Positions 20,447 through 23,937 of a stretch of 64,000 nt of DNA are shown here, piece after piece. Each line of letters starts with the position of its first letter. Positions within the stretch are counted from its first letter, which is position 1. The stretch is from Escherichia coli. Its GTDB lineage: Bacteria; Pseudomonadota; Gammaproteobacteria; Enterobacterales; Enterobacteriaceae. A program made the translations under genes and the position numbers. Under the pieces are notes generated by a model. It did not search any database, was not told the origin of the DNA, and worked only from the letters and a program-made list of their open reading frames with translations. Where the stretch lies: the NCBI RefSeq assembly GCF_003334315.1, contig NZ_QOWR01000006.1, one strand, 5' to 3'.

Positions 20447-20540
20447 TGCCTTCGCTGAGGGTGCCGGTCTGGCACCCTGACTTGCAACTCCCGCCGAAAT
20501 CCTGCAAAGTCTGCCTGCAAGTCTGACAGGGCAACTATTT

Positions 20541-21110
20541 ATGAAACGACTCATTGTAGGCATCAGCGGTGCCAGCGGCGCGATTTATGGCGTGCGCTTA
20601 TTACAGGTTCTGCGCGATGTCACAGATATCGAAACGCATCTGGTGATGAGCCAGGCAGCGCGCCAGACCTTATCCCTCGAAACGGATTTTTCTCTGCGCG
20701 AAGTGCAGGCATTAGCCGATGTCACGCACGATGCGCGCGATATTGCCGCCAGCATCTCTTCCGGTTCTTTCCAGACGCTGGGGATGGTGATTTTACCCTG
20801 TTCAATCAAAACCCTTTCCGGCATTGTCCATAGCTATACTGATGGCTTACTGACCCGTGCGGCAGATGTGGTGCTGAAAGAGCGTCGCCCGTTGGTGCTC
20901 TGCGTGCGTGAAACACCATTGCACTTAGGCCATCTGCGTTTAATGACTCAGGCGGCAGAAATCGGTGCGGTGATTATGCCTCCCGTTCCGGCGTTTTATC
21001 ATCGCCCGCAATCCCTTGATGATGTGATAAATCAGACGGTTAATCGTGTTCTTGACCAGTTTGCGATAACCCTTCCTGAAGATCTCTTTGCCCGCTGGCA
21101 GGGCGCATAA
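20541..21110 (+). CDS. ubiX: Flavin prenyltransferase UbiX, 189 aa
   Basis: GISGASGAIYG flavoprotein motif; recognised sequence. Confidence 0.95.
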   Translation: MKRLIVGISGASGAIYGVRLLQVLRDVTDIETHLVMSQAARQTLSLETDFSLREVQALADVTHDARDIAASISSGSFQTLGMVILPCSIKTLSGIVHSYTDGLLTRAADVVLKERRPLVLCVRETPLHLGHLRLMTQAAEIGAVIMPPVPAFYHRPQSLDDVINQTVNRVLDQFAITLPEDLFARWQGA

Positions 21111-21118
21111 CTCCGCTG

Positions 21119-21141
21119 TTGCCCTGTTTCAGGGCAATTTT
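21119..21141 (+). terminator. Intrinsic terminator downstream of ubiX
   Basis: Hairpin ttgccct-gtttc-agggcaa followed by tttt. Confidence 0.65.
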
Positions 21142-21291
21142 GCAACCGCGATCAAATCCTCGACATTTTGTTTCTGCCATTCAATCGAAACGCTGCGATT
21201 CAACCGCTATACCTGCTATCTTCAACTTCAGGACAATAATGCAACGTCTTATTAACATATTTAACGTTGAATGTTACTGTTGTCGTCAAGA

Positions 21292-21307
21292 TGGCATAAG
21301 ACCTGCA
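21292..21307 (+). promoter_or_regulatory. sigma54 (-24/-12) promoter candidate for argT
   Basis: tGGcat-aagac-ctGCa: GG and GC are spaced exactly as in the TGGCAC-N5-TTGCA consensus, ~70 bp upstream of the argT ATG; argT is a known Ntr-regulon gene. Confidence 0.65.
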
Positions 21308-21375
21308 TGAAAGAGCCTGCAAACACACAACACAATACACAACATAAAAAAGCCATTTTCACTTGAGGGTTATGT

Positions 21376-22158
21376 ATGAAGAAGTCGATTCTCGCTCTGT
21401 CTTTGTTAGTCGGTCTCTCCACAGCGGCTTCCAGCTATGCGGCGCTACCGGAGACGGTACGTATCGGAACCGATACCACCTACGCACCGTTCTCATCGAA
21501 AGATGCTAAAGGTGATTTTGTTGGCTTTGATATCGATCTCGGTAACGAGATGTGCAAACGGATGCAGGTGAAATGTACCTGGGTTGCCAGTGACTTTGAC
21601 GCGCTGATCCCCTCACTGAAAGCGAAAAAAATCGACGCTATTATTTCGTCGCTTTCCATTACCGATAAACGTCAGCAGGAGATTGCCTTCTCCGACAAGC
21701 TGTACGCCGCAGATTCTCGTTTGATTGCGGCCAAAGGTTCACCGATTCAGCCAACGCTGGATTCACTGAAAGGTAAACATGTTGGTGTGCTGCAGGGATC
21801 AACCCAGGAAGCTTACGCTAACGAGACCTGGCGTAGTAAAGGCGTGGATGTGGTGGCCTATGCCAACCAGGATTTGGTCTATTCCGATCTGGCTGCAGGA
21901 CGTCTGGATGCTGCGTTACAAGATGAAGTTGCTGCCAGCGAAGGATTCCTCAAGCAACCTGCTGGTAAAGATTTCGCCTTTGCTGGCTCATCAGTAAAAG
22001 ACAAAAAATACTTCGGTGATGGCACCGGTGTAGGGCTACGTAAAGATGATGCTGAACTGACGGCTGCCTTCAATAAGGCGCTTGGCGAGCTGCGTCAGGA
22101 CGGCACCTACGACAAGATGGCGAAAAAGTATTTCGACTTTAATGTCTACGGTGACTGA
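21376..22158 (+). CDS. argT: Lysine/arginine/ornithine-binding periplasmic protein ArgT, 260 aa
   Basis: Signal peptide plus recognised sequence; paralogue of the adjacent hisJ. Confidence 0.95.
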
Positions 22159-22216
22159 TACGTCGCTGGGAAGCTGTACCTGATGGAATGATCATCATGG
22201 TGCACGCCAGGTTTGT

Positions 22217-22233
22217 TGCACTATCGTGGTGCA
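22217..22233 (+). promoter_or_regulatory. NtrC-like enhancer palindrome upstream of hisJ
   Basis: tgcactatcgtggtgca resembles the NtrC consensus TGCACCA-N3-TGGTGCA; lies ~100 bp upstream of a weak -24-like TGGCAC at 22315. Confidence 0.4.
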
Positions 22234-22378
22234 TTGAAATGCATACTTAAGCATTTTTAATGAAAAATAATACGTCTAACGGGGCGGGATATTTTGCCTT
22301 GATGGTCAATTTTATGGCACGATAAGTGTAACAAACCTGTAAATATTCCCTATAAAAAGACTGTCAGTTGAGGACATT

Positions 22379-23161
22379 ATGAAAAAACTGGTGCTATCGC
22401 TCTCTCTGGTTCTGGCCTTCTCCAGCGCAACTGCGGCATTTGCTGCGATTCCGCAAAACATCCGCATCGGTACCGACCCGACCTATGCGCCATTTGAATC
22501 AAAAAATTCACAAGGCGAACTGGTTGGCTTCGATATCGATCTGGCAAAGGAATTATGCAAACGCATCAATACGCAATGTACGTTTGTCGAAAATCCGCTG
22601 GATGCGTTAATCCCGTCCTTAAAAGCGAAGAAGATTGACGCCATCATGTCATCGCTTTCCATTACGGAAAAACGTCAGCAAGAAATAGCCTTCACCGACA
22701 AACTGTACGCTGCCGATTCTCGTTTGGTGGTGGCGAAAAATTCTGACATTCAGCCGACAGTCGAGTCGCTGAAAGGCAAACGGGTAGGCGTATTGCAGGG
22801 CACCACCCAGGAGACGTTCGGTAATGAACATTGGGCACCAAAAGGCATTGAAATCGTCTCGTATCAGGGGCAGGACAACATTTATTCTGACCTGACTGCC
22901 GGACGTATTGATGCCGCGTTCCAGGATGAGGTCGCCGCCAGCGAAGGTTTCCTCAAACAACCTGTCGGTAAAGATTACAAATTCGGTGGCCCGTCTGTTA
23001 AAGATGAAAAACTGTTTGGCGTAGGGACCGGCATGGGCCTGCGTAAAGAAGATAACGAACTGCGCGAAGCACTGAACAAAGCCTTTGCCGAAATGCGCGC
23101 TGACGGTACTTACGAGAAATTAGCGAAAAAGTACTTCGATTTTGATGTTTATGGTGGCTAA
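22379..23161 (+). CDS. hisJ: Histidine-binding periplasmic protein HisJ, 260 aa
   Basis: Signal peptide plus recognised sequence. Confidence 0.95.
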
Positions 23162-23185
23162 TCGCCATCGGTGAAAGAAAGCCCG

Positions 23186-23209
23186 CTCCCTTCGGGTAAC
23201 CGGAGGGAG
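23186..23209 (+). other. Stable stem-loop in the hisJ-hisQ spacer
   Basis: ctcccttcgg-gtaa-ccggagggag: 10-bp stem with one G-U pair and no following U-tract, so not a classic terminator. Confidence 0.55.
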
Positions 23210-23250
23210 ACAAGAGGCGGTAATTCACCACACACGACAGGACAGGCAGC

Positions 23251-23937
23251 ATGTTGTATGGGTTTTCAGGTGTTATTTTACAGGGTGCGCTCGTCACGCT
23301 GGAGCTGGCTATCAGCTCTGTAGTGCTCGCTGTAATCATCGGTTTAATTGGCGCTGGCGGTAAGCTCTCGCAAAATCGGCTTTCGGGGCTGATTTTCGAA
23401 GGGTACACCACGCTGATTCGTGGCGTGCCGGACTTAGTGTTGATGCTGCTGATTTTCTACGGTTTGCAGATTGCGCTAAACACGGTGACGGAGGCGATGG
23501 GCGTCGGGCAGATTGATATCGATCCGATGGTCGCTGGTATTATCACTCTCGGTTTTATCTACGGTGCTTATTTTACCGAAACGTTCCGTGGTGCTTTTAT
23601 GGCAGTGCCGAAAGGACATATAGAGGCGGCGACGGCGTTCGGTTTTACTCGTGGGCAAGTGTTTCGGCGGATCATGTTTCCGGCGATGATGCGTTACGCC
23701 CTGCCAGGCATTGGCAACAACTGGCAGGTGATCCTCAAATCTACCGCACTGGTTTCGTTACTCGGCCTGGAAGATGTGGTCAAAGCCACCCAACTGGCAG
23801 GCAAAAGTACCTGGGAACCGTTCTATTTCGCCATCGTCTGTGGCGTGATTTACCTGGTTTTCACCACTGTTTCCAATGGTGTGCTGCTGTTCCTTGAGCG
23901 CCGCTACTCCGTGGGTGTGAAGAGGGCTGACCTGTGA
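23251..23937 (+). CDS. hisQ: Histidine/Lys/Arg/Orn ABC transporter permease HisQ, 228 aa
   Basis: Recognised sequence; multi-TM permease. Confidence 0.95.
   Translation: MLYGFSGVILQGALVTLELAISSVVLAVIIGLIGAGGKLSQNRLSGLIFEGYTTLIRGVPDLVLMLLIFYGLQIALNTVTEAMGVGQIDIDPMVAGIITLGFIYGAYFTETFRGAFMAVPKGHIEAATAFGFTRGQVFRRIMFPAMMRYALPGIGNNWQVILKSTALVSLLGLEDVVKATQLAGKSTWEPFYFAIVCGVIYLVFTTVSNGVLLFLERRYSVGVKRADL

Follow-up and report, generated by a model that had tools for sequence, protein, structure and literature searches.

The genes argT and hisJ stand in tandem in Escherichia coli, and a sigma54 promoter precedes the first of them. Does hisJ have an NtrC/sigma54 module of its own, as had been proposed from the sequence alone, or do the elements between the two genes belong to something else?

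We analyzed a 64-kb stretch of DNA, referred to here as the window, which is identified as the purF-ubiX-argT-hisJQMP region of E. coli. Its positions 21000-23300 are 100% identical to many E. coli chromosomes, were found in 5426 of 5426 complete E. coli genomes and match the annotation ubiX-argT-hisJ-hisQ:

20541-21110: ubiX
21292-21307, + strand: argT sigma54 promoter TGGCATaagacCTGCA, sigma54 ChIP-seq site OS22, the first module
21376-22158: argT
22379-23161: hisJ
23251 (start): hisQ

The argT-hisJ spacer measures 220 bp and houses both the palindrome and the hexamer TGGCAC that had given rise to the proposal. A window position p corresponds to 2447189 - p in the U00096.2 version of MG1655 and to 2449167 - p in NC_000913.3; this conversion is backed by the gene coordinates and by the published centre of the argT sigma54 motif, 2425890, which is the centre of window 21291-21307. 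For comparison we used 80 Enterobacteriaceae loci obtained with HisJ as query. Of these, 78 reach far enough upstream, and all 78 have argT and hisJ in tandem. Counts out of 79 refer to these 78 loci and the window itself, and all comparative counts across loci are phylogenetically non-independent. Sigma54 motifs were scored with a position-specific matrix (PSSM) built from 42 intergenic sense motifs of the sigma54 ChIP-seq study in E. coli (Bonocora et al.).

NtrC sites in the argT-hisJ spacer

Two stretches of the spacer resemble the NtrC dyad:

22217-22233, no strand assigned: high-affinity NtrC (GlnG) binding site TGCACTATCGTGGTGCA, based on its consensus match (13/14), a ChIP-seq peak and conservation
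22188-22204, no strand assigned: candidate second NtrC site ATGATCATCATGGTGCA, tentative, with 10/14 consensus positions and a perfect right half-site

The near-consensus palindrome that had been noted at 22217-22233 is exact in sequence. It agrees with the 17-bp dyad consensus TGCACCAnnnTGGTGCA in 13 of 14 positions and is the sole match with one mismatch in the 64-kb window, where 0.03 are expected from shuffles. In nitrogen-starved E. coli, Brown et al. (2014) observed an NtrC ChIP-seq peak (peak 12, 2424941-2425021, 23.7-fold), which they assigned to hisJQMP; in our coordinates it covers 22168-22248 and thus includes the palindrome. An NtrC-like site with at most three mismatches is present in the spacer of 73 of the 78 Enterobacteriaceae loci, for a chance expectation estimated at about 1%. 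Since the palindrome is close to the consensus, far beyond chance, occupied in vivo and conserved in the family, we conclude that it is a genuine NtrC site, and one already documented in the literature. In published gSELEX with NtrC alone, the hisJ-proximal site is not among the listed targets.

The same evidence bears on the notion that two functionless motif-like strings merely co-occur here by chance. TGGCAC taken alone does appear at the chance rate, with 49 copies in the window against 43 expected, but for the palindrome the notion is refuted by its rarity, occupancy and conservation, and we give it virtually no credence.

The histidine transport operon of Salmonella typhimurium (dhuA/hisJ) resembles that of E. 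coli in having a site at the orthologous position between argT and hisJ, where Salmonella loci carry TGCACCATTTTGGTGCA. The control region of Salmonella dhuA (hisJ) reportedly contains an NtrC-binding site. In the spacer alignment of 25 genera, two or three NtrC-like sites are visible. In genera other than Escherichia, their distances to TGGCAC, measured from the start of each site, are about 97, 118 and 148 bp; they are thus 21 and 30 bp apart, on one helix face, the kind of phasing that permits NtrC to oligomerise. The strong E. coli site occupies the 97-bp position. E. coli has one site fewer than Salmonella, since it lacks a stretch of about 31 nt that most genera, Salmonella included, possess.

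The weaker candidate, ATGATCATCATGGTGCA, lies 29 bp upstream of TGCACTATCGTGGTGCA, and the NtrC ChIP peak is centred between them, at 22208. Its left half is variable within Escherichia. The 17-mer of TGCACTATCGTGGTGCA varies within this genus solely at its central, unspecified base, in the midst of a variable spacer, and by this pattern the site appears to be under selection. The arrangement is similar to that of glnAp2 in E. coli and Salmonella, where a pair of 17-bp dyads of the same consensus, spaced by about 30 bp, precedes the centre of the -24/-12 motif by roughly 90-125 bp. At hisJ, the distance from palindrome to TGGCAC is 98 bp from start to start, in agreement with the earlier figure of about 100 bp, and about 91 bp from the palindrome centre to the GG. 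The argT-hisJ spacer thus carries an NtrC enhancer element, made up of the strong site (22217-22233) and probably also of the weaker candidate (22188-22204).

At the RNA level, the spacer (22150-22335) folds better than shuffled sequences (z = -4.1); an Rfam scan of 21000-23400 gave no match. One hairpin, at 22173-22207, includes the upstream NtrC half-site and precedes GGUUUGUUG; it may act as a weak terminator of argT or simply mirror the many DNA palindromes in the spacer. The sole output of a promoter/terminator scan within the spacer was a weak terminator-like hairpin at 22273-22286.

Sigma70 and sigma54 elements upstream of hisJ

Between the NtrC sites and hisJ, we placed the following elements:

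22238-22255 and 22259-22276, + strand: two ARG boxes (ArgR operator), placed by eye, with a conserved ATGCATAsTTAAGCA core
22294-22299, + strand: sigma70 -35 hexamer TTGCCT upstream of hisJ, separated by 17 bp from ARG box 2; TTTGCC is invariant in the 25-genus alignment
22314-22330, + strand: sigma54-like motif ATGGCACGATAAGTGTA, with an intact -24 and a degenerate -12 element (GT for GC), 13.0 bits
22315-22323, + strand: extended -10 element TGgCACGAT of the hisJ promoter, which includes TGGCAC (22315-22320) and fits the start at 22330
22330, + strand: hisJ transcription start site (TSS), position 2424859 of Kim et al. (2012) mapped onto the window

For cells grown to mid-log phase in M9 glucose with NH4Cl, the TSS data of Kim et al. 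(2012) contain one hisJ start, at 2424859 on the minus strand of NC_000913.2, with a 49-nt 5' UTR, and print the sequence upstream of it, ending in ...TTTTGCCTTGATGGTCAATTTTATGGCACGATAAGTGTA. Counted from this start, at 22330, a TG falls on -15/-14 (22315-22316) and is followed by g and by CACGAT at -12 to -7 (22318-22323), with an 18-nt spacer to TTGCCT. The hallmarks of a sigma70 promoter with an extended -10 element (a -35-like hexamer, a spacer of 16-18 nt, TGn, a hexamer with A2 and T6, and a start about 7 nt downstream) are thus all found at hisJ, and TGGCAC constitutes positions -15 to -10. A simple consensus promoter scan missed this promoter, whose -10 element matches in just 3 of 6 positions. 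The architecture TTGCYN-N14-16-TGn-NAnnnT recurs in 63 of 79 sequences, and the spacer alignment shows, besides the invariant TTTGCC, an invariant TGGCAC(G/A)(A/T)TA and the conserved ARG-box core.

The two ARG boxes at 22238-22255 and 22259-22276 were placed by eye against the ARG-box consensus. According to the Charlier laboratory, hisJQMP is transcribed from a sigma70 promoter, and ArgR acts on two ARG boxes that end 17 bp upstream of its -35 element; in agreement with this distance, the 17-bp gap that follows ARG box 2 (22276) ends exactly at TTGCCT. The best explanation of the arrangement is that ArgR modulates the sigma70 hisJ promoter from two boxes between the NtrC site and the -35 element. 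In gSELEX, RpoD holoenzyme binds to the argT-hisJ spacer. The sigma70 promoter predicted in that study, TTGAAA-16-TTTAAT, overlaps the ARG boxes and conflicts with both the mapped start and the 17-bp distance from ArgR to the -35 element, and we rejected it. hisJ is absent from the supplements of the sigma-factor network paper. We conclude that TGGCAC belongs to the sigma70 promoter that transcribes hisJ. The sequence-only reading had named a start of this type in advance as evidence against its proposal, and for nitrogen-replete cells this is what the map shows, a map that covers NH4Cl medium only.

The T at 22293, which is 1 nt 5' of the -35 hexamer TTGCCT and at -86 from the hisJ start codon, is a recurrent hot spot of adaptive evolution in co-cultures of hisD auxotrophs. 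On the hisJ-coding strand, the mutation table of the paper has T->C and T->G, and its text refers to all three substitutions; glnG (NtrC) V18E also arose in hisD-auxotroph co-culture lines. The position sits in the T-run after the weak hairpin at 22273-22286. Further downstream, the start 2422798 assigned to hisP (267-nt UTR) in the data of Kim et al. (2012) corresponds to window 24391, inside hisM, and suggests an internal promoter in hisJQMP.

How much of a sigma54 promoter is left at the same place? The perfect -24 hexamer at 22315-22320 is as it had been described. It continues as gataaGTGTA and so deviates from the GG/GC pattern (TGGCAC-N5-TTGCW) in its -12 element, GTGTA, whose lack of the canonical GC had likewise been recognized. 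On the PSSM, ATGGCACGATAAGTGTA reaches 13.0 bits, where real sites range from 6 to 21 bits (leave-one-out), and ranks fifth among 128,000 window positions; the argT promoter is first with 16.0 bits. The missing GC alone is not disqualifying, because pspA and pspG of E. coli (TTGTA at -12) and hydN of Salmonella (GTGTA) work with or bind sigma54 with GT in this place, sharing the TGTA of hisJ. Unlike hisJ, these promoters are sigma54-bound in vivo, and at -15 pspA and pspG differ from hisJ by a T in place of G.

A separate string, TGGCACcctgacTTGCA at 20470-20486 in the purF-ubiX junction, is also sigma54-promoter-like, with a spacer that is one base too long, and lies outside the top PSSM matches.

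Sigma54 holoenzyme should occupy its promoters under any growth condition. Occupancy data give no sign of sigma54 at hisJ. None of the 50 intergenic sigma54 ChIP-seq peaks of Bonocora et al., some of which have very weak motifs, is near 2424866, and neither is anything in the supplements; argT is present (OS22), and the cells were in M9. Published gSELEX with RpoN holoenzyme, with and without NtrC, yielded the argT/ubiX spacer only and nothing at hisJ. For Salmonella, Samuels et al. include hisJ (TGGCACGATAGTCGCATC) among the predicted sigma54 promoters, with a footnote on evidence of inactivity that cites Ames & Nikaido, and their sigma54 ChIP-chip table has argT and not hisJ. The title of Ames & Nikaido (1985, EMBO J 4:539) announces that an NtrC-binding site was identified in Salmonella, and subsequent work refers to this paper as the source of the consensus and for argT and hisJ. 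Sigma54 transcripts begin about 11-13 nt beyond the -12 element. A sigma54 start that used the GG at 22316-22317 would be expected near 22341, whereas the start mapped in nitrogen-replete cells, 22330, is inside the -12-like element.

The second NtrC/sigma54 module that had been proposed upstream of hisJ thus stands in its NtrC half (ChIP-seq, 73/78 loci), and in E. coli finds no support in its sigma54 half, where the mapped start, ChIP-seq, gSELEX, the work of the Charlier laboratory and the Salmonella footnote all point the other way. In E. coli, the sigma54 element at hisJ is a remnant or no more than a weak promoter. The change at -12, together with competition by sigma70, would explain why sigma54 is not used.

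The position of NtrC itself points in the same direction. At 11 accepted NtrC operons, the NtrC peak centre of Brown et al. is always -11 to +48 bp from the sigma54 motif centre of Bonocora et al. (-11 at argT), and this holds even at glnA and nac, with consensus NtrC sites 89-133 bp upstream. At hisJ, the peak centre precedes the sigma54-like motif by 114 bp, and the peak lies right over the NtrC sites. With the caution due to the uncertain resolution of these 80-bp called peaks, NtrC seems to sit on the hisJ-proximal sites without engaging a promoter at 22322. For all its similar layout, glnAp2 differs from hisJ: it has strong sigma54 occupancy and its NtrC peak on the promoter, whereas hisJ has a sigma70-type start and no sigma54 signal.

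These results weigh on the reading in which the palindrome serves as enhancer for a working sigma54 promoter, TGGCAC-N5-GTGTA, that starts hisJQMP near 22341 under nitrogen limitation and alternates with the overlapping sigma70 promoter as at glmY. Sigma70 and sigma54 elements do lie on the same DNA at glmY and glmZ, as they do at hisJ, and the two holoenzymes would compete. The geometry is also suitable, with site centres at about -116 and -145 from the predicted start, compared to glnA, whose sites precede the motif centre by 89 and 121 bp. Further, the motif has 13 bits, GT at -12 is found in other promoters, most genera have a canonical motif at the orthologous place, and hisJQMP appears in published lists as NtrC-induced, RNAP binding being increased in nitrogen-starved cells. 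Yet sigma54 leaves no signal in ChIP-seq or gSELEX, the start at 22330 is of the sigma70 type, the Salmonella orthologue is noted as inactive although it has kept the GC, and the NtrC peak is on the sites and off the promoter, unlike in the 11 true NtrC operons. The parallel with glmY is also limited, since glmY has a canonical CTGCA at -12 and is among the three strongest sigma54 ChIP-seq sites (FAT 200), whereas hisJ has a degenerate -12 element and no signal. We consider it unlikely that E. coli hisJ retains a functional sigma54 promoter.

The hisJ promoter across the Enterobacteriaceae

At the position of the E. coli motif, TGGCAY-N7-GC is present in 58 of 79 sequences. Citrobacter, Buttiauxella and other genera have a canonical TGGCAC-N5-CTGCA there, preceded by phased NtrC sites, two or three in number. 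Motif scores are highest, at 18-19 bits, in Citrobacter, Franconibacter, Superficieibacter, Buttiauxella and Shimwellia. They amount to 13-15 bits in Salmonella and to 13.0 in every Escherichia, whereas K. pneumoniae and Raoultella reach 8-9 bits, and Enterobacter, Leclercia, Phytobacter and Pseudescherichia 3-10. The Citrobacter orthologue ATGGCACGATAACTGCA, for example, reaches 18.9 bits compared to 13.0 in E. coli, and the -12 element, GTGTA in E. coli, reads CCGCA or TCGCA in Salmonella.

Buttiauxella, Dryocola, Shimwellia and Mangrovibacter have a clean sigma54 promoter of the TGGCAT type without the TTGCCT/TGnCAYrwT architecture of sigma70. Loss of the GC at -12 is confined to sequences with the sigma70 architecture (17 of 63, as opposed to 0 of 12 with sigma54 elements only), counts that are phylogenetically non-independent. 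The NtrC-like sites are retained in all 19 of the 19 loci in which the hisJ sigma54 motif is below 12 bits. Four loci of the Cedecea group (L051, L052, L055, L059) have neither TGGCAC nor the TTGCCT architecture upstream of hisJ, and still carry an NtrC-like site, 82-109 bp from the start codon.

The simplest reading of this comparison is an ancestral sigma54 promoter that was overlaid by a sigma70 promoter. The ancestor of hisJ would have had an NtrC/sigma54 promoter, of the kind still canonical in many Enterobacteriaceae, onto which a sigma70 promoter was superimposed, reusing the -24 element as its extended -10 element. After this superimposition, the -12 element would have been free to decay in several lineages, including Escherichia, where it became GTGTA.

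Taken together, a real NtrC enhancer and a sigma70 hisJ promoter that reuses the -24 element of a decayed sigma54 promoter are in our view the best explanation for the locus, with a probability of roughly 0.6. NtrC occupies the argT-hisJ enhancer element in nitrogen-starved cells, and hisJ starts at 22330 from the sigma70 promoter (-35 TTGCCT, extended -10 TGgCACGAT). The same TGGCAC would represent the -24 half of the ancestral NtrC/sigma54 hisJ promoter, whose -12 element presumably drifted until sigma54 binding was no longer detectable. NtrC occupancy, the sigma70 start, the lack of a sigma54 signal and the cross-genus pattern are observations of this analysis or of the cited papers. Several points stand against this explanation. 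The E. coli motif, at 13 bits, is within the range of sigma54-bound sites, and pspA, pspG and hydN show that GT at -12 can go with sigma54; the hisJ start was mapped in nitrogen-replete medium, where the sigma54 start of argT is also unseen; in the sigma54 ChIP-seq of M9 cells, sigma54 might have been hidden by sigma70 holoenzyme on the overlapping promoter; and the strong conservation of the NtrC site in Escherichia would imply a continuing role, which the explanation does not account for.

Possible targets of the NtrC sites

If NtrC sites persist next to a sigma70 promoter, what do they serve? The candidate targets of the hisJ-proximal site at present are a weak hisJ sigma54 promoter and the argT sigma54 promoter 0.9 kb upstream. 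The latter, in the ubiX-argT spacer (21110-21375), scores at least 12 bits in 78 of 78 Enterobacteriaceae loci. The 330 bp upstream of argT hold no NtrC-like site with three or fewer mismatches in Escherichia, Salmonella or Citrobacter, and the closest match in E. coli has five; in many other genera, a good NtrC-like site is present about 200 bp upstream.

In nitrogen-replete cells, the data of Kim et al. (2012) give an argT start at NC_000913.2 2425959 (window 21230), with 303 reads and a 146-nt UTR. Since this start precedes the sigma54 promoter, argT also has a sigma70-type start; the sigma54 start of argT does not appear in the nitrogen-replete map. For nitrogen induction of hisJQMP in E. 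coli, we infer mainly read-through from the argT sigma54 promoter.

A second explanation builds on this promoter: the hisJ-proximal NtrC sites could form a remote downstream enhancer that reaches the argT sigma54 promoter, about 926 bp upstream, by DNA looping, hisJQMP being transcribed by read-through. Consistent with it are the conservation of the argT promoter in all 78 loci, the lack of near-consensus sites upstream of it in Escherichia, Salmonella and Citrobacter, and the retention of the spacer sites in all 19 loci with a decayed hisJ sigma54 motif. NtrC ChIP at the argT promoter is weak (5.4-fold, a manually added peak) and centred on the promoter itself, no convincing intrinsic terminator is seen between argT and hisJ, and the literature handles argT-hisJQMP as one operon. 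NtrC sites can act at kilobase distances and from either side. A parallel is the NtrC site of relA, located inside rlmD (Brown et al. 2014): like the hisJ sites, it lies within or behind a different gene, hundreds of bp away from the start codon of its target. It differs in lying upstream of its sigma54 promoter, whereas hisJ-proximal sites that served argT would act from downstream.

Against such a remote enhancer, an argTp-lacZ fusion at the lac locus responded to glnK deletion about like native argT. Near-consensus sites are also missing at 5 of the 11 known NtrC operons, and their absence upstream of argT is therefore weak evidence; and the spacer sites are no better in genomes without upstream argT sites (mean best mismatch about 2.4, compared to 2.1 in the others). 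We regard the remote enhancer as possible, on the doubtful side. Its evolutionary form is slightly more tentative still: in Escherichia, Salmonella and Citrobacter, the spacer sites may act as a downstream intra-operon enhancer that loops about 0.9 kb to the argT sigma54 promoter, left for this neighbour after the ancestral hisJ sigma54 promoter had been overwritten by sigma70.

Another possible role lies closer at hand. NtrC bound at 22217-22233 might hinder or reshape the ArgR-DNA complex and thereby relieve repression of the sigma70 hisJ promoter under nitrogen limitation. The NtrC site is 4 bp from ARG box 1, and the two also abut in genera with a promoter-proximal third site; ArgR repression at hisJ is weak and has been described as dependent on the conformation of the DNA and on contacts made about 90 bp upstream. 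The literature that we consulted on this locus holds no experimental hint of such an interplay. To our knowledge, activation of sigma70 promoters by NtrC is without precedent, and we consider the interplay improbable.

Under the preferred explanation, that of an NtrC enhancer next to a sigma70 promoter built on sigma54 remains, annotations of the spacer between argT and hisJ in E. coli should show an NtrC site, two ARG boxes and a sigma70 promoter, and no second sigma54 promoter, which is a correction rather than a discovery. The locus offers a case in which one hexamer is both the -24 element of sigma54 and the extended -10 element of sigma70. Across the Enterobacteriaceae, the sigma54 half is canonical only where it is presumably still in use, while the NtrC sites persist everywhere, and hisJ thus provides a handy natural series for the study of sigma-factor promoter turnover and enhancer retargeting.
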